From Spirulina sp. (GTDB lineage Bacteria > Cyanobacteriota > Cyanobacteriia > Phormidesmidales > Phormidesmidaceae), in assembly GCA_044070495.1 (NCBI GenBank), contig JBIPSI010000037.1, positions 1 through 48,700 of the forward strand: DNA of 48,700 nucleotides. The letters are read 5' to 3'. Made by a program: the position numbers and the translations under genes. The notes beneath the pieces were generated by a model. That model saw nothing but the letters and a program-made list of their open reading frames with translations. It was not told where the DNA came from and searched no databases. This document shows, one piece after another, positions 77-10,526 of the stretch (positions are counted from its first letter, which is position 1; each line of letters starts with the position of its first letter).

Positions 77-141
77 GCCCCTTACTCTAACGATTTTTGT
101 CCCATTCGCAATAGCCCCATCTTGTTGCGGTGACTAATTAC

Positions 142-363
142 TTAGACTTCAAACAGTGATCGGGGTAGCTGCGACTGTCGAATAATAGATTGTAGCGTTC
201 CTATTTTTAAGGCTTTGTGATTGGGGACAGGAACGGTAATGGTTGTCTCTTCTATGCGTTTTTGCATAACAATGTGGCTTCCCCGTTGTTGTACGTTCTG
301 GAATCCATGTTGTTCTAGAAGCTTGCATATTTCGCTTCCCGAAAAGATTCTAAGCTTGCCCAA
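142..363 (-). CDS. hicA: HicA family toxin
   Basis: (M)GKLRIFSGSEICKLLEQHGF..QRGSHIVM..VPVPNH..GTLQSIIRQ is typical HicA; TTG start at 363 overlaps the hicB end. Confidence 0.88.
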   Translation of the reverse strand: MGKLRIFSGSEICKLLEQHGFQNVQQRGSHIVMQKRIEETTITVPVPNHKALKIGTLQSIIRQSQLPRSLFEV

Positions 364-586
364 TGCTAACCTCCAGTCGGGTAATAAAGACTTCGGATTT
401 GAGACGACTGGCAATTTCGGAAGGATCGGCAACTTCAAAGAAAAGCTCGATGGCCTCGATTAGGTTAGTTCTGGCTTCTTCTACGGTATCGCCCTGGCTA
501 GCAATGTCTAGCTCAGGACAGAGGGAAACATAGCCTTCTTCTTCCCGTTCGATAACAGCCGTAAACTGATGTGTTTGTTTAATCAC
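350..586 (-). CDS. hicB: HicB family antitoxin (short form)
   Basis: FTAVIEREEEGYVSLCPELDIASQGDTVEEARTNLIEAIELF; GTG start with AGGAG upstream. Confidence 0.9.
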   Translation of the reverse strand: MIKQTHQFTAVIEREEEGYVSLCPELDIASQGDTVEEARTNLIEAIELFFEVADPSEIASRLKSEVFITRLEVSIGQA

Positions 587-620
587 TGTCTGAACTCCTT
601 ATGATTTGGGTGCATGGTAT

Positions 621-698
621 TTAGTCTTGCTGATGAAGATTTTTTAGATCTTCTTAAAGAATTTGAAGGCTATCAGGTAAATCGATGGTGATTTGCAT
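621..698 (-). pseudogene. Internally deleted UPF0175 antitoxin-like gene remnant
   Basis: First 13 codons MQITIDLPDSLQI match 2073..2330, joined out of frame to a tail EDLKNLHQQD* resembling its FEEDLHN end. Confidence 0.7.
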
Positions 699-701
699 GG
701 T

Positions 702-1112
702 TTAGGCTCCTGTGTCAGGGGGTTGGCTTAGGGTGTCAAGGTAGGTGATGGTTGCTTTTCCCCAGATGCTTTCTTCTAGGTAGTGCTGGGCGATATCGAT
801 GAGGGTAGCTTTGGTGGCTTGGAGGTGACGTTCGGGATTGAGCAGTTGTTGGCGAAGATTGGCCCACTTGGAGGAACTGCTGTGCTGGATTTCGGTGAAT
901 TCTACGTCAATAATTGCAAGGGCTTCGGATTCGGTGGCGACGTTAGGGTGCTGGCTTTGGAGGTGAGTTATCAGCACTTTTAGATCCATGATGGCCGCTT
1001 GAACTGATGGATCGGTGGCGTAGTTATGCTGTGCCTCGATGTAGGTATCGACCTGCTCGAAGATTTGTACTTTTTCGGCTTTGGGAAAGTTGTATTTTGA
1101 GGCTTCTGTCAT
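702..1112 (-). CDS. 136-aa hypothetical protein, copy B; N-terminus resembles the C-terminal motif of the upstream NACHT-HEAT protein
   Basis: Intact ORF; ATG overlaps the parE stop; 14 substitutions versus copy at 2334..2744. Confidence 0.8.
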   Translation of the reverse strand: MTEASKYNFPKAEKVQIFEQVDTYIEAQHNYATDPSVQAAIMDLKVLITHLQSQHPNVATESEALAIIDVEFTEIQHSSSSKWANLRQQLLNPERHLQATKATLIDIAQHYLEESIWGKATITYLDTLSQPPDTGA

Positions 1113-1432
1113 GGGGTTGGTTCTTGGTCAAGGATAAATTCTAGGTTTTGGGCACCGTGAAGGACTCGGATAATTTCTACGGTATCAGGATGAATTTGAT
1201 AGAAGATGATGTACTTGCTGAAGCCTTTGATAGGGTATTGGCGTATTTGAGCCAGCCTTGGAGATGTGAATCCACTGCGTCTACCAATTTCAGGAAGTTT
1301 GGCAATGCGTTGAAAGGTTGCCTCGGCAGCATAGAGAAAGCGATCACCCGCATCAAGGTTATCAAGACTGATGTAGGTAGCATGGGCGATCAGATCTTGA
1401 ATGACGATTGGGCGTTTGGTCAGGTTAGCCAT
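1109..1432 (-). CDS. parE: RelE/ParE family toxin
   Basis: QDLIAHATYISLDNLDAGDRF..P.IGR..KYIIFY..VEIIRVLHGAQNL. Confidence 0.88.
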   Translation of the reverse strand: MANLTKRPIVIQDLIAHATYISLDNLDAGDRFLYAAEATFQRIAKLPEIGRRSGFTSPRLAQIRQYPIKGFSKYIIFYQIHPDTVEIIRVLHGAQNLEFILDQEPTP

Positions 1433-1682
1433 TGTGGGATTGATCGCGTTGGTTTTGATGAACAGCGGCGCGGATGGACTCCCAATCGCTGGTGGTCATT
1501 GGTGTGGGTTCGCCGGAGTTAAGCCCTTCGAGAATGAGGGGTTCAAGATGGTCTTTGCGGGCTTTGTCTTGTTGGATGAGGGCTTGAATGTAGTCGTTGG
1601 CGGTGTTGTATTGGCCGGATGCAAGTTGCTCTTTGAGGTAAGCGGCTAGAGCCTCTGGGAGTGAGATGGTTAGATTAGTCAT
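1425..1682 (-). CDS. parD: ParD/CC2985-type RHH antitoxin
   Basis: LTISLPEALAAYLKEQLASGQY..A.DYIQALI..LEGLNSGEPTPMT; overlaps parE start. Confidence 0.85.
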   Translation of the reverse strand: MTNLTISLPEALAAYLKEQLASGQYNTANDYIQALIQQDKARKDHLEPLILEGLNSGEPTPMTTSDWESIRAAVHQNQRDQSHNG

Positions 1683-1705
1683 GGAGTTACTTGTATGGGT
1701 AAGGA

Positions 1706-1924
1706 CTAGGCAATTTCTCGACTAAAGACTTCGGATTTGAGGCGATTGGAAAATTCGGAAGGATCGGCAACTTCAAAGAAAAGCTCGATGGCCTCGATTA
1801 GGTTAGCCCTTGCTTCTTCTACAGTATCGCCCTGGCTAGCAATGTCTAGCTCAGGACAGAGGGAAACGTAACCTTCTTCTTCTCGTTCGATAACAGCCGT
1901 AAACTGATGGGTTTGTTTAATCAC
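1706..1924 (-). CDS. hicB: Second HicB antitoxin copy with replaced C-terminus and no cognate hicA
   Basis: Near-identical to 350..586 up to KSEVF, then SREIA*; GTG at 1924. Confidence 0.75.
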   Translation of the reverse strand: MIKQTHQFTAVIEREEEGYVSLCPELDIASQGDTVEEARANLIEAIELFFEVADPSEFSNRLKSEVFSREIA

Positions 1925-1958
1925 TGTCTGAACTCCTGACGCTGTAGATAAATAATAC

Positions 1959-2090
1959 TCATGCTCCTTCGCCAAAGGTTAGATCTTCTCTTACCTCATA
2001 GGGAAGTTGTGGTGGACGTTCTAGCGGGTTGCCATCCCAGCTACTAACGACGTTTTCAAAAAAACCAGGATGTCACCCTCGTGATTCGGG
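1959..2090 (-). pseudogene. C-terminal remnant of a further small antitoxin-like gene
   Basis: Reading through the TGA at 2073 gives PESRG*HPGFFENVVSSWDGNPLERPPQLPYEVREDL, resembling from memory the GW.PGFFE..W.G.PLERP.Q..YE.RE.L tail of small antitoxins that precede vapC; its stop overlaps an ATG giving MSIIYL. Confidence 0.55.
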
Positions 2091-2330
2091 GATGTTGTGA
2101 AGTTCAGGACGGATATTATGTAGGTCTTCTTCAAAGTCTGTGACATCGTAATGGATGCAAATACCTCGGCTACCAATAAGCTGCTGAAATTCCATTTGAT
2201 GCATTCCGGCAATCTGGCTGGCTGTGCCTAGGGTGACTCGCTCTTGCTGAAAGAGGGTTATGGCTAGTTCTGTCCGTAGGTCGGCTTCGGTGATTTGAAG
2301 GCTATCGGGTAAGTCGATGGTGATTTGCAT
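2073..2330 (-). CDS. UPF0175 family antitoxin-like protein
   Basis: ITEADLRTELAITLFQQERVTLGTASQIAGMHQMEFQQLIGSRGICIHYDVTDFEEDL. Confidence 0.85.
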   Translation of the reverse strand: MQITIDLPDSLQITEADLRTELAITLFQQERVTLGTASQIAGMHQMEFQQLIGSRGICIHYDVTDFEEDLHNIRPELHNIPESRG

Positions 2331-2333
2331 GGT

Positions 2334-2744
2334 TTAGGCTCCTTTTTCTGGAGGTTGGCTTAAGGTATCAAGGTAGGTGATGGTTGCCTTGCCCCAGATG
2401 CTTTCTTCTAGGTAGTGCTGGGCAATTTCGATGAGAGTAGCTTTGGTGGCTTGGAGGTGGCGTTTGGGATTAATCAGTTGTTGTCGCAGATTGGCCCACT
2501 TGGAGGAACTGCTGTGCTGAACTTCAGTAAATTCTGCGTCAATAATGGCGAGGGCTTCGGATTCGTTAGCGACGGTGGGGTGCTGGCTTTGGAGATGGGT
2601 AATCAACGCTTTTAGATCCATGATGGTTGCTTGCACCGATGGATCGGTGGCGTAGTTATGCTGGGCCTCAATGTAGGTATCGACCTGCTCAAAGATTTGG
2701 ACTTTTTCGGCTTTAGAGAAGTTGTATTTTGAGGTTTTTGTCAT
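2334..2744 (-). CDS. 136-aa hypothetical protein, copy A
   Basis: About 90% aa identical to 702..1112. Confidence 0.8.
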   Translation of the reverse strand: MTKTSKYNFSKAEKVQIFEQVDTYIEAQHNYATDPSVQATIMDLKALITHLQSQHPTVANESEALAIIDAEFTEVQHSSSSKWANLRQQLINPKRHLQATKATLIEIAQHYLEESIWGKATITYLDTLSQPPEKGA

Positions 2745-2746
2745 GG

Positions 2747-3148
2747 CTATATGTCCTGTTTAGGGGGTTCCCAGATGCGATGGATAGTGTAGGCATCCAT
2801 CTGGCTATCCTGGCTGACGAGGGATAGATTATGGTTGATGGATTGGGCAATGAGAATTCTGTCGAAGGGATCACGATGATGTAGGGGCAAGGAGAGATAA
2901 ATCTCTAGGGCTTTGAATGTGATAGGCAGTTGCGTGATGTCAAGGGATGTTAAATTAGGTTCGATGGTGCTAAATGGGGCAGAGAGGTCAAGTTTACCGA
3001 TGTTGGCTTTGATAGCAATTTCCCAGAGGGAGGCAATGCTGACAAAGACGGTGGGCGTGGTCTCAATTTGGGTGCGGGTGCTGGTGGGAAGTTGGGTGTC
3101 GTTGTCGAGAAACCAGATGATGGCGTGGGTATCAAGCAGGAGAGTCAT
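2747..3148 (-). CDS. vapC: VapC (PIN domain) toxin
   Basis: LLLDTHAIIW, SIASLWEIAIK, HHRDPFDRILIAQ motifs. Confidence 0.92.
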   Translation of the reverse strand: MTLLLDTHAIIWFLDNDTQLPTSTRTQIETTPTVFVSIASLWEIAIKANIGKLDLSAPFSTIEPNLTSLDITQLPITFKALEIYLSLPLHHRDPFDRILIAQSINHNLSLVSQDSQMDAYTIHRIWEPPKQDI

Positions 3149-3150
3149 GG

Positions 3151-3375
3151 CTACATGTAGTCTTTGAGATCTTCCAGGGGTGCATCAAAGTCGTCAGCCA
3201 TGGTGAACATGCCTTTCATGGTTCCGGCTTGGCGATATTGCTTAGGCGGTGTTTCAGAGGATAGATTTTTTGCATATTTGGCGGCTAGATATTCAGCGTA
3301 ATGAAGAATTTCTGTTTGCAGATTTGGAGAGAGTTTTTCAAGAGTTTCAATTAACTGACTCGATAACATTAGCAT
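3151..3375 (-). CDS. DUF2281 family antitoxin
   Basis: LEKLSPNLQTEILHYAEYL..RQAGTMKGMFTMADDFDAPLED; directly upstream of vapC. Confidence 0.82.
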   Translation of the reverse strand: MLMLSSQLIETLEKLSPNLQTEILHYAEYLAAKYAKNLSSETPPKQYRQAGTMKGMFTMADDFDAPLEDLKDYM

Positions 3376-3530
3376 TCTCCTTGGAGAGAATTTGAGTTTT
3401 CTTTGCGGGCCTTGTCTTGTTGAATGAGGGTTTGGATATAGTCGTTGGCAGTGTCGTATTGGCCGGATGCAAGTTGCTCTTTGAGGTAAGCGGCTAGAGC
3501 CTCTGGGAGTGAGATGGTTAGATTAGTCAT
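3369..3530 (-). pseudogene. Truncated ParD antitoxin copy (N-terminal RHH part only)
   Basis: First 43 codons nearly identical to 1425..1682, then unrelated ENSNSLQGEC*. Confidence 0.75.
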
Positions 3531-3573
3531 GGAGTTACCTTGATGGAGAAAGCTTGGATGATTGATTGATGGA

Positions 3574-6500
3574 CTATTGATCTGAGTCTGGGGGATGTTC
3601 ATAGTAATGTTCAACCCGCTCAAAGATTTTAACTTCAGGGGCATTAGGGAAAATATAGCTTATCGGTGCAGTTGTTGTTTCTGGAGTCTCTTTAGTCGTA
3701 TTTTGAGCGGTCATTGCTTCTTGCCAGATGCAGTAGTTATAGAACTTGCAGCGATTTTGAATAGTTGGAATCAGCCAAGAAAGCTGTGAAATATAGAATT
3801 TCCTATTTGCATCTATCAACTCAGGGAGTTTATTATTAATGTCCTGGAGAGAGCATTTTGCTAGAACAAGAGCAGCCCGATTTTGAAAATAGATATCCTT
3901 GGTATAGTTTTCTGGATTTATTAGAGCATCAATCAGTCGATTTAGCATTTCCAAATTCATTAATTCAGATAAAAAGTCTATAGTTTCGCTAGAAGACTCA
4001 TGGCCTGGGTCTACTAATGCTTCAAACAGGTTTGCCAAAACCTCCGACCCTACACTCCCTTGATGCTTAGCTAACCTACCTAATTCAATAGCTGCTCTTT
4101 GCCAATATAAGCATTTAGACTGAGTGATCTCAAGTAAAGGTTCTTTAAGGCTAAGTCTCGAAAGACTTTTCATGATTTCAACATGAGGATCAAAATTAGT
4201 AGGTGCTTTTAGTGAATCTAACAGAGTAGGAATAGCTTCTTTTTGATCAAATTTACTTAAGGAGCAAGCCGCGTTTATTCGGACATATCGATCAGAATCC
4301 TTATCAATAACGTTGAGCAAAGAAGGAATACAGTTTGAGTCACCAACAATACCAAGAACTACAGCCGCAGTTGAACGAATGCTTGATTCCTGATGGTTTT
4401 CTAACTCATTCATCATTCTTGGTAGAACTTTAGAGTCCTTCAGATGGCCTAAGACAATAGCTGCGCACCATGATATATGCCAGTTATTATGCTCAGCTAA
4501 ATTCCTCAGTTCTCCAAGATCTTTGGGATTATCTATACTTTTTAGTTTAATCAGTTGCTTAGCTGCTTCTGCCCGAAGATTTCTGCTGTCTTCGCCCAGT
4601 CGTTGGACTAAGAAGTGAATTGCGGTGTCAAATTTACTTGCACCTAAAATTTGAATTATTTGCTTCTGAAGGGTCTCATAAGGCTCCTGAGCAAATAACT
4701 GAATTAATTCCGGAATAAACAACTCATACCTTGAAGAGACTCCCAGAAGATTAAGAATATGGTTTCTTTGTCGAAATTCAGTAGAAGGAAGAGTGATCTT
4801 AGTATTCTTTAGCAGATTTATAATGTCAGCATCTACTTTCTCTTTTAAATCAGTTGAGTCGGGCACCTGGATTTCTCTTTCAGGCTCTTCCCAGTCAGCA
4901 GCTATTTTTCTATTTTCTTCATGTTGAGCATTCCTAAACTCTTCGAGTAGTTCTCGAATCATATTTTCGGCATCTAGCCTCATCAGAATTGGTGCTGCCT
5001 GGGTCATCATTAGTAATAATGTGCCATGCTCTTTTAACTTCTGACGCAAGAACTTAATGGCTAACTGTGGTGAAATATGACTAAGAGATTGAACACAGGT
5101 TGACCATGAAATTCCACTCTTGTCAGAGTCTCCCAATGACTTTTGAGAGAAAAGCTTTTCACTAATTTTACCTAGTCTTCTTGTTATAGTATCTATAGCA
5201 ACTTGATTGCTAGTTTCTCCTATATAAGATGTTGCAATTTCAACGACATCAATATTTTTATGTGTTAAGAATGATAAAAGCTCTGGGATAGCTAATTCTG
5301 ATCGTGTTTCACCCAGAAGCTCAACTTTTAACCTGTCTGTTACAGAAAGCTTGATTACTTCTCCTACAGTTGCTTCTTGAAAAAGAAGTGCCACTTCTCC
5401 AGCCAGCTTTGCTCCTAACCTTAAATCTATATCCATTGCCAGCTTTACCACTCGCAAAGCATGGTCTTTGTTATCCACCAATGCCAGCATCAGGGCAATG
5501 GGTTCTGTCCACTTCAATAGATTTAGGTAGTCACGCTTAAATTGAGCCTCATCCTCAAGTAACTCAGACAATTCCAGCTTCAGCAGCAGTGCTTCGGCGG
5601 CGTAGTATTCCTGGAAAAGCTGGTGGTGAAATTCAATTTCCCTAGGGTCTGTGGCAACTTGTAGCAGATGGTGTTCGAGCAGATCCTCCAGCCATTCCTT
5701 GGCTCGTTGTCCTGGGGCTTCTACCCGACCTGTTAAATAGGTTTCTAAAAGTCTTTCGGCTTGGCTACGATCTATCGTTAGCCAAGCTTCGGTGGGGCTG
5801 GTTGGGTCGCCCTGCAACATGCAAAAGGCAAGGTGTTGCAATAGCTCCGGCTTAAACCGCCGAAAGTCGTCAGAAACAGCCACTAGCCCCTTAAACTGGT
5901 CATACTTGGCATCAAATAGGCGAAACAGTTCACCCTTGCTCTGGGGAATTTGCCCAGTTGTACTGTCAAAGACATCACAGAGCATTTTGAGCAGCAGTGG
6001 GGTTTCAGCCACCTCTCGCAGGCGGTCTTTGAGCTGCCGCAGCAACGTATCAGCCTGGTTAGGCAATCCTCGCTGGGTCAGGTATTTGTTCACAAACTCC
6101 CGCATTTGGGGTTCGCTCAGGGGGCGCATTTCCAACCGCTTTTGGATGCCCAGGTCTCCACCCACCGCCAGATCTCGCGTGGTGAAGATCATCGGTGTGG
6201 TCGGGTTGTCTTCTCGAAAGGCTTGGAGCTTGCGCCGCTGCTGATCCGAAGGAATTTCGTTGACCCCATCGAGCAGTAACAGTAATCGGTCTTCCAGCAA
6301 CCAATCTTCCAGTTGCTCCGCACTAATCCGCACCTTCGCCCGCCGAAATTCTGCCAAGATTAGCTCAATAACGGGACGATCACCCTTAAGCTGCACATAC
6401 ACCGGAATGATCTCAGGTTGTTCCAGGGCGACTTCTGCCGCCTCCAATAGCAACCGCTTTAGCGTGGTAGATTTTCCTGAACCCGGTCGTCCTGCCAGCA

Positions 6501-6972
6501 AAAGATGTTGACGCTTTTCGCCCAGGGCATGTTTCTGTAACCCTTCCAAGACCGGAAAGCGCTCTACCTTTTGCTGAGTTATTTCAGGTGAGCGAGAAGC
6601 ATCTTCTGATGCTCGCCGCTCCACCGTTTCTGCCTCCAGCAGAATCAATACGTCAGTCTCGGTATAGAGGTCACGCACATCCTGATATCGGGAATCTTGG
6701 CGGAGGATAAATTCTAGGTACCCGGAAAAATCAAACGTAGGGGGGAAGCTGCCATTCTTCAATTTGTCCAAGTAATCCTGAATGGCGCTGAGTCCTGGCC
6801 CAATATAGCTATCGGCCCACTCCAGCAGGGCGCTAACCTGTTCGCCAACTTTGGCTGAGGTTCCGGCTCGGTTCATCCGGGGCATCGCCACAGCAATCAG
6901 TAGCCGCTCAAAGTCTGCTTGCGGCAGGCGGCTTAAATCATCAAATAGCCGAGCACGATCACCGGAATCCAT
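3574..6972 (-). CDS. NACHT (STAND) NTPase with small N-terminal helical domain and C-terminal HEAT repeats (NLR-like)
   Basis: Walker A GRPGSGKST, Walker B LLLLDGVNE, FTTR, TPLLL, FHHQLFQEYYAA; HEAT-like units (RSTAAVVLG, RINAACSLS); IQNRCKFYNY tail motif. Confidence 0.9.
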   Translation of the reverse strand: MDSGDRARLFDDLSRLPQADFERLLIAVAMPRMNRAGTSAKVGEQVSALLEWADSYIGPGLSAIQDYLDKLKNGSFPPTFDFSGYLEFILRQDSRYQDVRDLYTETDVLILLEAETVERRASEDASRSPEITQQKVERFPVLEGLQKHALGEKRQHLLLAGRPGSGKSTTLKRLLLEAAEVALEQPEIIPVYVQLKGDRPVIELILAEFRRAKVRISAEQLEDWLLEDRLLLLLDGVNEIPSDQQRRKLQAFREDNPTTPMIFTTRDLAVGGDLGIQKRLEMRPLSEPQMREFVNKYLTQRGLPNQADTLLRQLKDRLREVAETPLLLKMLCDVFDSTTGQIPQSKGELFRLFDAKYDQFKGLVAVSDDFRRFKPELLQHLAFCMLQGDPTSPTEAWLTIDRSQAERLLETYLTGRVEAPGQRAKEWLEDLLEHHLLQVATDPREIEFHHQLFQEYYAAEALLLKLELSELLEDEAQFKRDYLNLLKWTEPIALMLALVDNKDHALRVVKLAMDIDLRLGAKLAGEVALLFQEATVGEVIKLSVTDRLKVELLGETRSELAIPELLSFLTHKNIDVVEIATSYIGETSNQVAIDTITRRLGKISEKLFSQKSLGDSDKSGISWSTCVQSLSHISPQLAIKFLRQKLKEHGTLLLMMTQAAPILMRLDAENMIRELLEEFRNAQHEENRKIAADWEEPEREIQVPDSTDLKEKVDADIINLLKNTKITLPSTEFRQRNHILNLLGVSSRYELFIPELIQLFAQEPYETLQKQIIQILGASKFDTAIHFLVQRLGEDSRNLRAEAAKQLIKLKSIDNPKDLGELRNLAEHNNWHISWCAAIVLGHLKDSKVLPRMMNELENHQESSIRSTAAVVLGIVGDSNCIPSLLNVIDKDSDRYVRINAACSLSKFDQKEAIPTLLDSLKAPTNFDPHVEIMKSLSRLSLKEPLLEITQSKCLYWQRAAIELGRLAKHQGSVGSEVLANLFEALVDPGHESSSETIDFLSELMNLEMLNRLIDALINPENYTKDIYFQNRAALVLAKCSLQDINNKLPELIDANRKFYISQLSWLIPTIQNRCKFYNYCIWQEAMTAQNTTKETPETTTAPISYIFPNAPEVKIFERVEHYYEHPPDSDQ

Positions 6973-7092
6973 ACCAGATGCAGCGGGCGCGAGAAAATCG
7001 TAGACCTATCGCTATGGTAGCCGCAGTTCCCAAGAGATCCCAATGGCAAGGCAAGCAGCCCGACTTTTTCAAGAAACCGGGCGGCTGAGGGG

Positions 7093-9192
7093 TTAGGCGT
7101 TGATGCGTCCCGCCATCGGAGAACTGGGGCTGGCGGTAGTTTGGATGGGGATGCGTCCGGCGTGGTAGGCCAGTCGTCCGGCCTGGGTGGCGAGGCCCAT
7201 GGCGCGACCCATGGCCACGGGGTTTTGGGCCTTGGCGATGGCGGTGTTAATCAGCAGGGCATCGGCCCCCATTTCCATGGCCAGGGCGGCTTCGCTGGGG
7301 GTGCCAATCCCGGCATCCACCACCACGGGCACCTTGGCATTTTCGATGATGATTTGGATATTGGCGGCGTTGCGGATGCCCTGGCCAGAGCCAATCGGAG
7401 AACCGAGGGGCATCACCGTGGCGCAGCCCGCTTCCTCTAGGCGTTTGGCCAGCAGGGGGTCGGCGTTGATGTAGGGCAGCACCGCAAAGCCTTCCTTCAC
7501 CAACTGTTCCGCCGCCTCTAGGGTGCCGATGGGGTCGGGCAGCAGGTATTTGGCGTCGGGGATCACCTCTAGTTTGACGAAGTTGTTGTCTTCCTGGCCC
7601 AGCAGTTTGGCCATTTCTCGGCCCAGCCGCGCCACTCGGATGGCCTCTTCGGCGGTTTGGCATCCGGCGGTGTTGGGCAGCATCCAAATCTTCGACCAGT
7701 CCAGGGCTTCGGCGAGACCTTCGTGTCCAGGGGCATTGGTCTGCACCCGCCGCACCGCTACGGTGACAATCTCGCAACCGCTGGCGGCAATGCTCTGGCG
7801 CATGGTTTCAAAGTCGTCGTACTTGCCCGATCCGGTCATTAGGCGGGAGGCGAAGGAGCGTCCGGCGATGACCAGGGGATTGTCGGCGGGGATAGCGGCG
7901 GCGGCGGATTCGAGGGGAGTGGCGGTTAGGGTCATGGTGGGTTGGGATAGGGAGTCGGGAGTCGGGAGTGGGGAGTCGGGAATCGGGTAGGGGCGGGGTT
8001 TCCCCGTTCCCAAAACGTCGGGAGTCGGGTAGGGGCGGGGTTTCCCCGTTCCCAAAGCGTCAGGATTTGGGGGGCCGTTAAAACGCTGATAGGAGAAGGG
8101 GGGGAGGAGATCGGGGGTGCGTCCGGCGAGGTATTCGGCAATCAGGTGGGCGGTGATGGGGGCGAGGAGGATGCCGTTGCGGTAGTGTCCGGTGGCGAGG
8201 GTGAGGTTGGCGGCGGGGCCGGGGCCGAGCAGGGGCATTTCGTCCGGGGTGGCGGGTCGGTAGCCCCACCAGGTTTGTTCGAGGGTGCAGTCGGCCAGCC
8301 AGGGCAGTAGGGCGATGGCGTTGGCCAAGAGCTGGTTGACTCCGGCGGCGGTGTTGCCGGGGGCAAAGCCGACTTCCTGGCTGGTGGCCCCCAACACGAT
8401 GCGGCCATCCTGGCGGGGCACGATGTAGATGTTTTCGCCAAACAGCACCCGTTGCAGGGGTTGCACGGTGCCCAGGGCTGGGGGCACTCGCAAACTGGCC
8501 ATTTCGCCCTTTTTAGGGAAGACGGGCACAGGCAGCAGGTCGTAGCTCCAGGCTCCGGCGGCGAGGACGATGTGATCGGCCTGGAAGTCGCCAGCCTGGG
8601 CGGTGCAGACGCGCTCGATGCGGCCTTGGGATTGCCGCAATGCGGTGGCCCCAACCCCTTCGTGAATCGTCACCCCCAGATCGAGAACCGCAGCACGCAG
8701 GGCTTTCACGAGGGCTTGGTTATTCACTTGGCCATCTTCGGGATACCAAAAGGCACCTTGCACCCCAGCGCCTAGTCCGGGCTGGTAGTGGGCGAGGGCT
8801 GCGGCGGTTAACCATTGCCCTTGGGCAGTGTCCTGGGACACCTGATTCCCCTGGGATCGCTGATCCGTGAAATCAGATAAATCAGGCTCTTGGAAACGCG
8901 GAGCCAAAATGCCGCTGGGCCAATAGCCGACGGATTGCCCGGTGAGGGCTTCAATTTTCGCCACCCAGTCGGGATAGCGTTCCAAGCTGGCCAAGCACAG
9001 ATCCAGCATGGGGCCAAGGGGAATACCCTCGGCACGGGGGGCCAACATTCCGGCGGCGGCATGGCTGGCGGCGGCGGCAAAATCGCGGCTGAGGATGGCC
9101 ACGCTAGCCCCCTGCTGGCGCAGTTCTAGGGCAATGGCCAACCCCATCATGCCCCCGCCCACCACGAGGATGTCCTGTCCCGCCTGTGTCAT
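7093..9192 (-). CDS. thiG: Fused glycine oxidase ThiO / thiazole synthase ThiG (ThiG part from about 7935)
   Basis: [11 protein letters not shown] motif, [20 protein letters not shown]; then [27 protein letters not shown]. Confidence 0.93.
7950..8061. repeat. Heptamer STRR-like run (GGGAGTC) plus two REP-like direct repeats with 42-bp period in the thiO-thiG linker
   Basis: gggagtc/gggagtg/gggaatc from 7950; tcgggtaggggcggggtttccccgttcccaaa(a/g)cgtc at 7983 and 8025. Confidence 0.85.
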
Positions 9193-9261
9193 GTCTGGTT
9201 GCCTACTGATTTGCTGCCTAGTGGTTTGTCGTCTAACGGTTTACGGTCTAAGGATTCATCC

Positions 9262-9412
9262 TATAGCGGTTCCCGATTGGGTGAGATAGACCTTTGCTGG
9301 GTTCTAGATCCCCCCAGAACCTAGCTGGCTCAGTTTTACTTTGTCACCCCCCTTGGTAAGGGGGGCAGGGGGGATCATCGCCATGTCCTTCACCTGTGGG
9401 AAATCCGCGATG
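9262..9412. mobile_element. About 150-bp MITE-like element, family 1, copy 1
   Basis: Colinear similarity with 39887..40036; TATAGCGG left end, degenerate right end; internal ccccctt/aaggggg hairpin. Confidence 0.75.
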
Positions 9413-9441
9413 AGTCCAGGCAGATAACCCCCGGTACGGCT

Positions 9442-9466
9442 GGGCGAGGAGACCTCACCCCTACGG
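9442..9466 (-). repeat. GTAG-type REP-like palindrome
   Basis: Reverse complement of the ccgtaggggcgaggtctcctcgccc unit at 39859 (one mismatch). Confidence 0.7.
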
Positions 9467-9566
9467 TTTAGCCGCGAATGCCTGTCCTGGGAACATTTGT
9501 CCCTGTGACATTTTAGGCCATAGGATCTAGACAAGCAGAAACTTGATCCCTTAAGGAACCGACCCT

Positions 9567-10526
9567 GTGAACATCGCTTTTATTATCGACCCCATCGAAC
9601 GCCTCGACCCCGGCCACGATACCAGCATCGCCTTGATGGAGGCGGCCCAGGAAAAAGGGCACCAGGTCTGGATCACCGAAGCACCCTTCCTGAGTGTGGT
9701 GGGTGGCAAGGCTTATGGGCTGTTGCGGCGGGTGGAACTGACCCCGGTGCAACTGGTGGATGGCCATTGGGTGGCGGATGAGCAATGGTACGAGGTGGAC
9801 GAGGTGGAGCAGCGTCCTCTGGAAGACATGGACGTGGTATTCATGCGGACGGATCCGCCTGTGACCGTGCCCTACCTCTACGCCACTTACATTTTGGACT
9901 ACATCGACCCAGCCAAAACTCGCGTGATCAACTCGCCCAAGGGCATCCGCGCCGCCAACGAAAAGATGTATGCCCTGCAATTCACAGAGGCCATTCCCGA
10001 AACCATCGTCAGCCAAAACAAAGCGGTGATTCGTGAAACTGTGGAACGCTGGGGCGCGGCGGTACTCAAGCCCCTAGGCGGCAAGGCGGGCGAGGGCATT
10101 TTGTTCCTGCAAGCGGGGGATCGCAACCTCAACTCCATGGTGGAAATCAGCACCCGCCAGGGCCGAGAACCTGTGATGATTCAAACCTACCTCCCCGCCG
10201 CCAAGGAGGGCGATAAGCGGATTATTCTGCTCAACGGCGAACCCATTGGTGCGGTGAATCGTATTCCTACGGGCAGCGAATTTCGCGGCAACATGGCCGT
10301 TGGCGGTCGGGTCGCCCAGGTAGACATCACCGACCGCGAGCAAGACATCTGCCACCAACTGGCCCCCACCCTGCGCCGAGACGGCCTCTACTTTGTGGGC
10401 ATCGACATCATCGGCGGCTACCTCACAGAGGTCAACGTCACCAGCCCCACGGGCATTCGGGAAATTGACCGTCTCAATAACGTGCGTTTGGGCCATCAGG
10501 TGATGGACTGGCTGGCGGAACAGTAG
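9567..10526 (+). CDS. gshB: Glutathione synthetase
   Basis: HDTSIALM, FMRTDPP, ANEK, KPLGGKAGEG, GDKRI, FRGNMAVGG, EVNVTSPTG. Confidence 0.96.
   Translation: MNIAFIIDPIERLDPGHDTSIALMEAAQEKGHQVWITEAPFLSVVGGKAYGLLRRVELTPVQLVDGHWVADEQWYEVDEVEQRPLEDMDVVFMRTDPPVTVPYLYATYILDYIDPAKTRVINSPKGIRAANEKMYALQFTEAIPETIVSQNKAVIRETVERWGAAVLKPLGGKAGEGILFLQAGDRNLNSMVEISTRQGREPVMIQTYLPAAKEGDKRIILLNGEPIGAVNRIPTGSEFRGNMAVGGRVAQVDITDREQDICHQLAPTLRRDGLYFVGIDIIGGYLTEVNVTSPTGIREIDRLNNVRLGHQVMDWLAEQ

Follow-up and report, generated by a model that had tools for sequence, protein, structure and literature searches.

We analysed an NLR-like gene in a 48,700-nucleotide stretch of Spirulina sp. DNA (GenBank assembly GCA_044070495.1, contig JBIPSI010000037.1, positions 1 to 48,700; hereafter the window). 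The gene is a single open reading frame (ORF) on the minus strand at 3574-6972 and consists of a small N-terminal domain, a NACHT module, a HEAT-repeat sensor block (HEAT-A) and a short conserved tail. Alleles with a common NACHT module carried unrelated HEAT blocks between the same two junctions, 5432/5433 and 3762, and the tail was kept in three of five alleles and in metagenome contigs. These results make it likely that the gene is put together from modules that its relatives recombine, with the sensor being a cassette between fixed junctions; the signalling scheme that goes with it is drawn by analogy. The composition step inside the gene is the seam between these modules: the G+C content of NACHT parts roughly follows that of the hosts, and that of sensor parts does not. 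An earlier note, made from the letters of the window, had proposed that the sensor segment was exchanged horizontally between conserved flanks, and the comparisons below support such an exchange as its probable history.

Abrupt loss of homology between conserved flanks

Regional identities were measured among 40 relatives. In the N-terminal domain (aa 1-77), the top identities were 60-65% (G004, G018, and G012). Across aa 78-470, a relative of the same genus (G015) showed 79% and the other relatives 42-54%, with 45% for G033, a member of another family. Across aa 591-1060, G033 showed 57%, G015 22%, and the remaining relatives 11-25%. At the C-terminal end (aa 1061-1132), identity was 60% and 57% to the thiG-adjacent alleles of G019 and G005, respectively, and 0% to G033. 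The earlier note had held that uniform identity across the gene among relatives would speak against a chimera; with G015 at 79% and then 22%, and G033 at 45% and then 57%, uniformity was not seen.

The position of the break was examined in bins of 20 residues. As far as aa 500, G015 (locus L022) and Tildeniella torsiva (L078) were 70-100% identical to the window protein; the value sank to 35-55% in the bin of aa 501-520 and then stayed mostly below 50% (13-50%). L022 and L078 were 84-90% alike before aa 500 and about 20% alike after it, and a metagenome allele (L193) was 79-91% identical to the window protein at aa 101-500 and 21-33% identical at aa 601-1100. From these steep drops, we conclude that four close NACHT modules (the window gene, L022, L078, and L193) bear four unrelated HEAT blocks.

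At the DNA level, blastn matched L193 to 5432-6960 (79.6%), to 3400-3652 (76.8%), and to the array downstream of the gene (82%). Between the first two matches lies a tandem array (L193:6655-8496) in which a HEAT unit of 93 nt (31 aa) is repeated 19.8 times at 80% matching, with a G+C content of 0.61-0.64. Repeat arrays of this kind are known from fungal NLRs.

The same edges were found in assembler contigs of four public runs (X1, X2, X5, and X7, from three studies), which were aligned to 3400-7100 at 85% likeness. On the NACHT half, an X1 contig covered 5432-6618 with 32 differences in 1187 nt and an X2 contig covered 5494-6586 with 17 in 1093 (97-98% identity), and an X7 contig lay on 5432-6844 at about 91%; tail contigs lay on about 3402-3762 at about 89%. 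Contigs of X5 and X7 continue with about 255 unlike letters before 5432, those of X1, X5, and X7 continue with unlike letters behind 3762, and a single X2 contig joins 3762 directly to 5432. No contig of the four runs was placed on 3772-5383 at this likeness, which is by itself no finding; the weight is on the loose contig ends and the single joint.

The first junction, 5432/5433, is the boundary of codons 513 and 514 and coincides with the change point in G+C at third codon positions (GC3) described below; 3762 is the first base of the IQNRCKFYNY motif. The allele comparison at the thiG-adjacent locus that the earlier note had suggested came out as it expected, in that L193 and the run contigs share the edges 5432 and 3652-3762 with unlike sequence between them. 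Matching resumes at 3652-3762 in the three alleles and the metagenome contigs that keep the tail, and the other two alleles carry a different C-terminal domain. Thus the proposed exchange between conserved flanks stands as far as the shared edges are concerned, but the first junction lies about 55 codons past the motif FHHQLFQEYYAA that had been taken as the flank. Exact DNA matches of at least 14 nt to 93 family loci peak at aa 481-510. The mean there is 7.8 loci per base, compared with 4.6 in the bin ranking second and 0-4.5 in all others; among fetched family members, the longest exact match measured 47 nt.

A paralog in the same genome (G000) was considered as the donor of the HEAT block and rejected: the genome has no close paralog, and the next best match is 29-30% identical. 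A scan of metagenome contigs with the NACHT half gave closest relatives of 82% and 79% identity. As a separate observation, contig C580 of G010 (L032:5145-6080) contains a 312-aa ORF in which the first ~197 residues of an NLR are joined straight to the conserved C tail, with no sensor; this looks like a deletion between conserved parts.

Composition step within the gene

The G+C content was 0.529 over 5561-6972 and 0.384 over 3574-5560, against 0.567 for the genome; 12 of 5203 genome windows of 2 kb had a G+C content of 0.38 or less. The two sample lines cited in the earlier note were exact (38/60 G+C at 6121-6180 and 19/60 at 4501-4560). The maximum-likelihood change point was at 5573 when all bases were used (2-log-unit support, 5360-5640) and at codon 513 (5433; support, codons 496-527) when only third codon positions were used. 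Accordingly, the shift that had been placed near 5560-5600 inside the ORF is real, and the step lies 0-170 nt further downstream. The values were G+C 0.525 and GC3 0.55 for aa 1-500, and G+C 0.378 and GC3 0.29 for aa 501-1074. Since GC3 also falls, amino-acid make-up alone is insufficient to explain the step.

Of the two motifs said to flank the AT-rich block, both present, FHHQLFQEYYAA occupies aa 448-459 (5596-5631) and IQNRCKFYNY aa 1071-1080. High G+C does not return after the second one: the last 58 codons (aa 1075-1132) have a G+C content of 0.414. Among 982 in-frame segments of 1.5 kb from long ORFs of the genome, the GC3 of the NACHT half was at the 9th percentile (90 at or below) and that of the HEAT half at the 0.5th percentile (5 at or below). 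The description of the NACHT half as host-like is therefore only roughly right: it is nearer to the host than the HEAT half, but is itself atypical.

Distribution of the HEAT-A block in the family

A search with aa 520-1060 returned 16 proteins with 49-68% identity along the entire block, plus one with 40%. Full-length HEAT-A carriers bear a NACHT module, and their N-termini vary (Trypsin_2, EAD10, or none); some have TIR_2, which is C-terminal where it was located. A quick IQ-TREE phylogeny was made for the NACHT module (37 rows), and a tree for HEAT-A (22 rows). In the NACHT tree, HEAT-A carriers fell into three deep clades (SH-aLRT 99-100), each of which also contained members with other sensors, and the window gene grouped with L022, L078, and P0014 (SH-aLRT 95). 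Forcing the 18 HEAT-A carriers into a single clade on the NACHT alignment cost 949.5 units of log-likelihood and was rejected by the approximately unbiased (AU) test (p-AU 4.6e-43). Hence the trees of the two halves are incongruent, as the earlier note had anticipated. The HEAT-A tree was star-like with short inner branches, and placed the window gene beside P0004 of Vacuolonema (SH-aLRT 90).

In the genome collection, 456 relatives were confirmed and the best 80 kept. Among 78 distinct complete genes, sensors were less than 35% identical in 16 of the 66 pairs whose NACHT modules were 75-85% identical, and in 2 of the 17 pairs at 85-95%. Composition was compared for the 51 of the best 80 loci that had enough sequence. 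The G+C content of the NACHT part tracked that of the flank (r 0.61; means 0.481 and 0.470), and that of the sensor part was independent of the flank (r 0.11; mean 0.422, sd 0.036). The mean GC3 was 0.50 for NACHT parts and 0.35 for sensor parts; total G+C dropped by more than 0.05 in 30 of the 51 loci and by more than 0.10 in 9. For HEAT-A itself, GC3 was 0.29-0.37 in the four hosts with DNA at hand (flank or genome G+C 0.47-0.57), with proteins about 60% identical. Therefore, the sensor half is as a rule AT-rich when the host is high in G+C, and this does not mark one recent event; the chimeric mark seen by the earlier note is present here, but it is common family-wide rather than a one-off. 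As AT-rich sensor halves are common whatever the host, the step alone neither dates nor proves a transfer into this lineage. AT-richness is not intrinsic to the sensor slot either, because the L193 cassette is G+C-rich.

These data also bear on the view that there was no exchange, and that the AT-rich half arose in place by AT-biased mutation in a fast-evolving sensor under weak constraint or by selection for AT-rich codons (e.g., for low expression), the low similarity of the relatives being divergence. The GC3 means given above, which include low-G+C hosts, agree with this view, and variable modules of other conflict proteins in the genome are likewise AT-rich. On the other hand, the breaks are abrupt and fall on the same base (5432) in independent alleles, identity drops from 80-90% to about 20% within about 20 codons, the HEAT-A block sits on three deep NACHT clades, and the slot of L193 is filled by a G+C-rich HEAT array. 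We consider an origin entirely in place very unlikely; drift in place may add to the AT-richness, but cannot account for everything.

Several points weigh against cassette exchange as we describe it. The group used in the AU test was defined from the HEAT search, yet after the NACHT tree had been seen, and the family counts are phylogenetically non-independent. P0004, P0006, and P0012 resemble the window protein to much the same degree in both halves (66-67% and 60-63%), and therefore the pairing of NACHT clade I with HEAT-A is not new and probably old; the present combination may have been inherited as a unit, and the latest swap may have been made either by the lineage of the window gene or by that of its nearest NACHT relatives. 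The closest HEAT-A relative found has 68% protein identity, and there is no donor among the relatives found. Sensor GC3 is below NACHT GC3 even in low-G+C hosts, so that part of the step may be intrinsic and not a mark of transfer. Furthermore, the metagenome pieces are assembler contigs, placed at 85% likeness and read in their matching parts.

Replacement of the whole gene at the thiO-thiG locus

The gene lies downstream of a fused thiO-thiG gene, whose protein is 88-95% identical in close relatives of the same genus and 95% identical in G005. DNA identity to G005 was 95% over 134-1724, 85.5% over 3400-3750, 97% over 6963-7027, and 91.5% over 7066-10516. Over 3750-6963, only weak patches were found in the comparison with G005, and G019 has matching edges; contigs of X2 and X5 have loose ends at 6963. 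The NACHT modules at this locus belong to clade I in G000, IIb in G005, and IIa in G019. Thus, the part of the earlier proposal that the sensor is swapped holds, but the exchange is not limited to the sensor, as the whole gene body, NACHT included, has also been replaced in G005 and G019.

Other genomes carry other genes at this spot: dynamin-like and DO-GTPase2 proteins with a HepT/MNT pair in G050 (L181:7046-13746), and PIN and TumE genes in G055 (L182:3863-6135). For congeneric species that are more remote, with thiO-thiG identities of 72-75% by tblastn and 76-80% by another comparison, no NLR match was found there in 8 of 8 loci examined. The differing cargo downstream of thiO-thiG indicates that the site is a variable defence spot with an outer pair of junctions, at the start codon and the tail. 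No mobile-element gene, diversity-generating retroelement (DGR), or transposase was noticed in the fetched flanks, in which no systematic search for them was made. In G005, an additional PIN pair (L189:6384-7162) separates thiO-thiG from the NLR.

It is accordingly possible that the NACHT and HEAT-A halves entered this genome together, by replacement from 6963 to about 3750, with the step already present in the donor. The complete replacement of 3750-6963 relative to the close relatives G005 and G019 speaks for such an arrival, as do the similarity of P0004, P0006, and P0012 in both halves, the low GC3 percentile of the NACHT half itself, and the similar N-high, C-low composition profile of the homologs in G033, G015, G034, G037, G012, and G028. 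Against it, contigs of X1 and X2 are 97-98% identical to the NACHT half, with the joint of 3762 to 5432 in X2 and unlike sequence behind 3762 in the tail contigs of X1, and L193 retains NACHT and tail with another sensor. The run contigs and L193 indicate that sensor-only swaps do occur on this NACHT lineage. We regard arrival of the whole gene as a possible but somewhat doubtful account of the latest event; it and cassette exchange are not mutually exclusive and differ on that event only.

The locus also speaks to an assembly artefact in which the NACHT half and the HEAT half of different organisms or paralogs were joined at a conserved stretch. The genome is a draft of 74 contigs, the junction adjoins the most DNA-conserved stretch of the family, and no public run was found that holds the whole stretch (best share of words 0.21). 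Nevertheless, the leader (6963-7027) and the tail with the array (134-3750) tie the two gene ends to the syntenic locus shared with G005 and G019, and a chimera would therefore require two switches, both in frame. In addition, the exact matches to fetched family members reach just 47 nt, the same pairing of NACHT clade and HEAT-A is present in other assemblies (P0004, P0006, and P0012), and the genome is without a second close copy. An artefact is thus extremely improbable, and cassette exchange remains our preferred explanation.

Domain architecture and proposed mode of action

The contig of the window (C37) belongs to a 5.31-Mb draft genome with 56.7% G+C. The gene product matched Pfam NACHT (PF05729) at aa 157-299 with 44.3 bits, above the curated cut-off of 26.7, and NB-ARC with 32.3 bits (cut-off 23.5); its C half matched HEAT_2 with 102.8 bits, the best stretch being aa 851-926. 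The tripartite NLR-like layout is present, with a small helical N-terminal domain followed by NACHT and then HEAT repeats. The Walker A motif GRPGSGKST was invariant among 17 relatives (alignment A1). Walker B reads LLLLDGVNE, in which D235, G236, N238, and E239 are invariant and an Asn stands at the first acidic position of the D[GAS]hDE signature. The named relatives are cyanobacteria. By its domains, the product is classed as a cyanobacterial NLR-like receptor of the STAND/NACHT class, with a predicted antiphage or stress role.

The earlier note had also looked to a defence-system hidden Markov model search, which returned no good match: no PADLOC profile, Avs included, matched over most of the length, and the best scores were HEAT-ARM_XIII with 27.9 bits (175 of 1972 profile positions), mad8 with 26.2 bits, and RT_UG21 with 15.5 bits. 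NCBIfam gave weak HEAT-type matches only, far under the cut-offs, and PHROGs gave no family for the HEAT half, the tail, or the 136-aa protein described below. A promoter and terminator scan of 3200-7300 returned fewer sites than shuffled sequences and none in the leader. Among public runs with words of the stretch, no RNA run was listed, a result that is silent on expression. Near-identical internal DNA repeats, as in fungal NLRs, were considered for the HEAT half and ruled out; Tandem Repeats Finder reported no rows, and direct repeats were only short and chance-like.

The N-terminal domain of about 70 residues was found on at least six further ORFs of the genome: an NB-ARC-TPR protein (C5), a CHAT protein (C10), a CHASE2 protein (C1), another NACHT protein (C18), an ORF without an assigned family (C7), and a carrier on C54 that was judged trypsin-like by eye from its sequence. 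An AlphaFold2 (AF2) model of the domain had four helices and a pLDDT of 81.8. Pfam, including the effector-associated domain (EAD) models, matched 0 of 9 copies at E <=1, save a chance-level Chalcone match at E 0.056; the relative P0005, which has another N-terminus, gave an EAD10 match at E 1.5e-22. No solved structure matched by sequence at E <=10, and Foldseek gave nothing at E <=0.001 (best E 3.9, ASC PYD). VIA-align gave Z scores of 5-7, with rows that were mostly CARD, DD, PYD, and bacterial death-like chains, and Z below 8 is common for helical models. In its behaviour, the domain is like an EAD, being a small terminal domain common to a core NTPase and to other effector or signalling proteins of the same genome.

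By analogy with bacterial NACHT and Avs proteins, binding of a phage- or stress-derived ligand to the HEAT block would be followed by oligomerisation of the NACHT module. The clustered N-terminal domains would recruit proteins of the genome with the same domain (CHAT protease-like and trypsin-like), leading to cell death or arrest. Homologous recombination within the conserved sequence next to the junctions would exchange the cassettes, and presumably only joins at domain boundaries survive because only they yield a working protein. A swap would in this way alter what is sensed and keep the signalling core.

Conserved tail, 136-aa proteins and downstream array

The features discussed here are listed in Table 1. 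The ParD-like ORF listed first after the tail overlaps the final 71 nt of the NLR gene; as its family match begins at residue 42, the true start codon probably lies past the stop of the NLR gene.

Table 1 The NLR-like gene, its parts, and its neighbours in the window.
Feature	Position	Strand	Evidence and remarks
Fused thiO-thiG gene, 699 aa; conserved upstream flank	7093-9192	minus	Pfam ThiG E 1.3e-109, DAO E 1e-72
5' leader, conserved, with the start-codon region; J1 (junction of whole-gene replacement)	6963-7027	minus	97% DNA identity to G005; G019 homology begins at 6963
NLR-like STAND NTPase gene	3574-6972	minus	Single ORF, 1132 aa; Pfam NACHT, NB-ARC, HEAT_2
N-terminal adaptor-like domain, aa 1-77, four helices	6742-6972	minus	Copies elsewhere in genome; AF2 model
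NACHT module with helical extension, aa 78-513, G+C 0.52	5433-6741	minus	Pfam NACHT; 79-82% protein identity to G015, L078, L193
Stretch best conserved in DNA across the family, aa 481-510	5443-5532	minus	Directly upstream of junction J2 (5432/5433)
HEAT-repeat sensor block HEAT-A, aa 514-1070, G+C 0.38, GC3 0.29; probable swappable cassette	3763-5432	minus	HEAT_2 matches, composition, replacement in G015, L078, L193, and metagenome contigs
Conserved C tail, aa 1071-1132 and stop: CKFYNY motif (3733-3762), variable linker, motif YIFPNAPEVKIFERVEHYYE (3598-3657)	3574-3762	minus	Junction J3 at 3762
ParD-like	3369-3644	minus	Pfam/NCBIfam
PIN	2747-3148	minus	Pfam/NCBIfam
136-aa protein	2334-2744	minus	No Pfam family
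UPF0175	2073-2330	minus	Pfam/NCBIfam
HicB-like	1706-1975	minus	Pfam/NCBIfam
ParD-like, second	1425-1682	minus	Pfam/NCBIfam
ParE	1109-1432	minus	Pfam/NCBIfam
136-aa protein, second	702-1112	minus	No Pfam family

The two 136-aa proteins of the window are 90% identical, and a third copy of the gene (G000:C41:576-917) has an internal TAG and a different start. The end of the NLR gene (3611-3651) shares a 41-nt repeat with both 136-aa genes, where it lies at the 5' end (2680-2720 and 1048-1088). At the protein level, the NLR C-terminus carries YIFPNAPEVKIFERVEHYYE and the small proteins begin with YNFPKAEKVQIFEQVDTYIE, so that a motif of about 20 residues within the last ~27 of the NLR also opens the 136-aa proteins. 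The paired forms of the motif are FPNA.EVKIFERVE.YYE and FPKAEKVQIFEQVDTYIE, and the pairing recurs across several cyanobacterial genera (loci L189, L024, L193, L075, L195, L091, and L074). Eight NLR tails (alignment A4) had two common motifs with a variable linker between them.

The fetched loci contained 114 distinct complete NLR genes. The 136-aa body was fused as a C-terminal domain in 18 and encoded separately downstream in 31; it was not found in 47 genes with enough flank, and in the others the flank was too short (15) or the match partial (3). The separate gene often starts 606-628 nt after the NLR stop. Where the two are split, ParD/ParE homologs occupy the gap in at least five loci, and elsewhere it contains other small genes. 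The occurrence of fused and split forms with a common motif suggests that the second flank represents what is left of a C-terminal domain, with a site behind it at which toxin-antitoxin cassettes insert, and the motif pair may mark the split point of a once-fused domain. A further-reaching idea is that the tail, besides being a recombination flank, would be half of a split signalling module. In its boldest form, the paired motifs would re-join the NLR with a detached helical domain of about 110 residues, mirroring the amyloid-motif NLR/effector pairs of fungi and bacteria, the gap would be dedicated to toxin-antitoxin capture, and NLR, cassette, and 136-aa protein would form one unit; we think this unlikely, but if true, it would be a new wiring of NLR-like receptors to toxin-antitoxin effectors.

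The array contains direct repeats of 300 nt (661-960 and 2293-2592, 90%), 215 nt (385-599 and 1723-1937, 94%), and 147 nt (1552-1698 and 3400-3546, 93%), and different toxin-antitoxin pairs lie between the 136-aa copies. From this arrangement, the array looks as if it was built by stepwise insertion of cassettes or by unequal recombination. The AF2 model of the 136-aa protein (pLDDT 64) was too weak for a fold search. An identity with TCAD2 was considered from an ESM Atlas cluster (score 0.90, a lead only) and dropped, as hmmscan of 14 members gave no confirmation; the other ESM Atlas clusters were cyanobacterial and without a family.

Composition steps elsewhere in the genome

The internal composition step of the gene ranks 4th among the 814 genome ORFs of at least 500 aa. 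We scanned 17 further ORFs with strong steps (ranks 1-3, 5-15, 21, 26, and 28 of the same list). Most strong-step ORFs encode modular conflict-type proteins with an AT-rich variable part: TPR-CHAT (four), NACHT (two), a WD40-repeat protein, LRR-Roc-COR, eCIS_core (four), TPS-CHAT, and an MmeI-family enzyme. The AT-rich part was the TPR region of TPR-CHAT, the C half of NACHT, and the LRR of Roc-COR; in eCIS_core proteins it was the (toxin) ends, and in MmeI the target-recognition end. The remaining strong-step ORFs were a secretin, a TonB-dependent receptor, and two without an informative family. Examples of strong-step ORFs are C1:174261-178901, C35:3466-6672, C10:146894-149026, C15:109836-112514, C11:20588-23317, and C19:58561-60741.

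A G+C step within a long gene can thus flag swappable cassettes. The host-independent and mostly low G+C content of the sensors raises the question of whether specificities come from a pool common to cyanobacteria rather than from evolution within each lineage.

Comparison with known systems

The modularity of bacterial NLR-like proteins is already known, mostly from the domain architectures of distant genomes; here, exchange is visible at the level of alleles. The alleles keep the signalling core and differ in the sensor, with NACHT DNA identity from 79.6% (L193) to 97-98% (run contigs), tail identity of 76.8-89%, and edges that are identical to the base. The junctions are concrete, at codons 513/514 and 1070/1071, and one shared edge coincides with the composition step.

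Kibby et al. (10.1101/2022.07.19.500537) report NACHT proteins from 58% of cyanobacteria, in numerous paralogs per genome, and name HEAT among the C-terminal repeat sensors of "antigen receptor type". The window protein resembles the bNACHT antiphage proteins of that study in its central NACHT, N-terminal effector or adaptor slot, and C-terminal repeat sensor. In contrast to them, its family apparently has no tested member there, and its Walker B region reads DGVNE where the bNACHT signature is D[GAS]hDE (10.1101/2022.07.19.500537). A further contrast is that, here, 18 of 83 pairs with NACHT modules 75-95% identical have different sensors.

The study [quoted passage not shown] (PMC13581612) describes a single sensor domain that occurs in numerous STAND clades. 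Like Avs proteins (PMC13581612), the window protein has a STAND NTPase and a C-terminal sensor, and HEAT-A on three NACHT clades is the same pattern; unlike Avs, it matches no PADLOC Avs model. The words "recombination", "swap", and "GC content" are absent from the main text of that study, which apparently gives neither allele-level junctions nor composition data (PMC13581612).

Kaur et al. (2020; PMC7159879) described "EAD coupling" in NTP-dependent conflict systems of multicellular bacteria. As in those systems, a small non-enzymatic terminal domain is common to the core NTPase and to peptidase-like or signalling proteins (PMC7159879). Relatives of the window gene hold Pfam EAD10, Trypsin_2, or TIR_2 in the effector slots, whereas the N-terminal domain of the window protein itself differs in having no match to the Pfam EAD models.

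In NLR-associated amyloid signalling motifs (BASS) with Bell-domain effectors, as described by Dyrka et al. (10.1101/2020.01.06.895854), a motif of about 20 residues is likewise common to an NLR end and an adjacent small helical protein in filamentous cyanobacteria. There, the motif is at the NLR N-terminus and the effector C-terminus (10.1101/2020.01.06.895854), whereas here it is at the NLR C-terminus and the N-terminus of the 136-aa protein, and it is charged.

The gene is a further member of the known bacterial NLR-like receptors, and its value lies in the allele-level exchange of the sensor and in the arrangement of tail, 136-aa proteins, and toxin-antitoxin genes. A conserved core with a variable specificity module, often differing in G+C and varying between close strains, is also seen in polymorphic toxin ends and in the target-recognition domains of restriction-modification systems. 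Domain shuffling has been described in DGR-diversified STAND sensors (PMC10907252). Unlike in other cassette-type systems, the variable module here is a repeat sensor inside an NLR-like gene, with conserved coding sequence on both sides.

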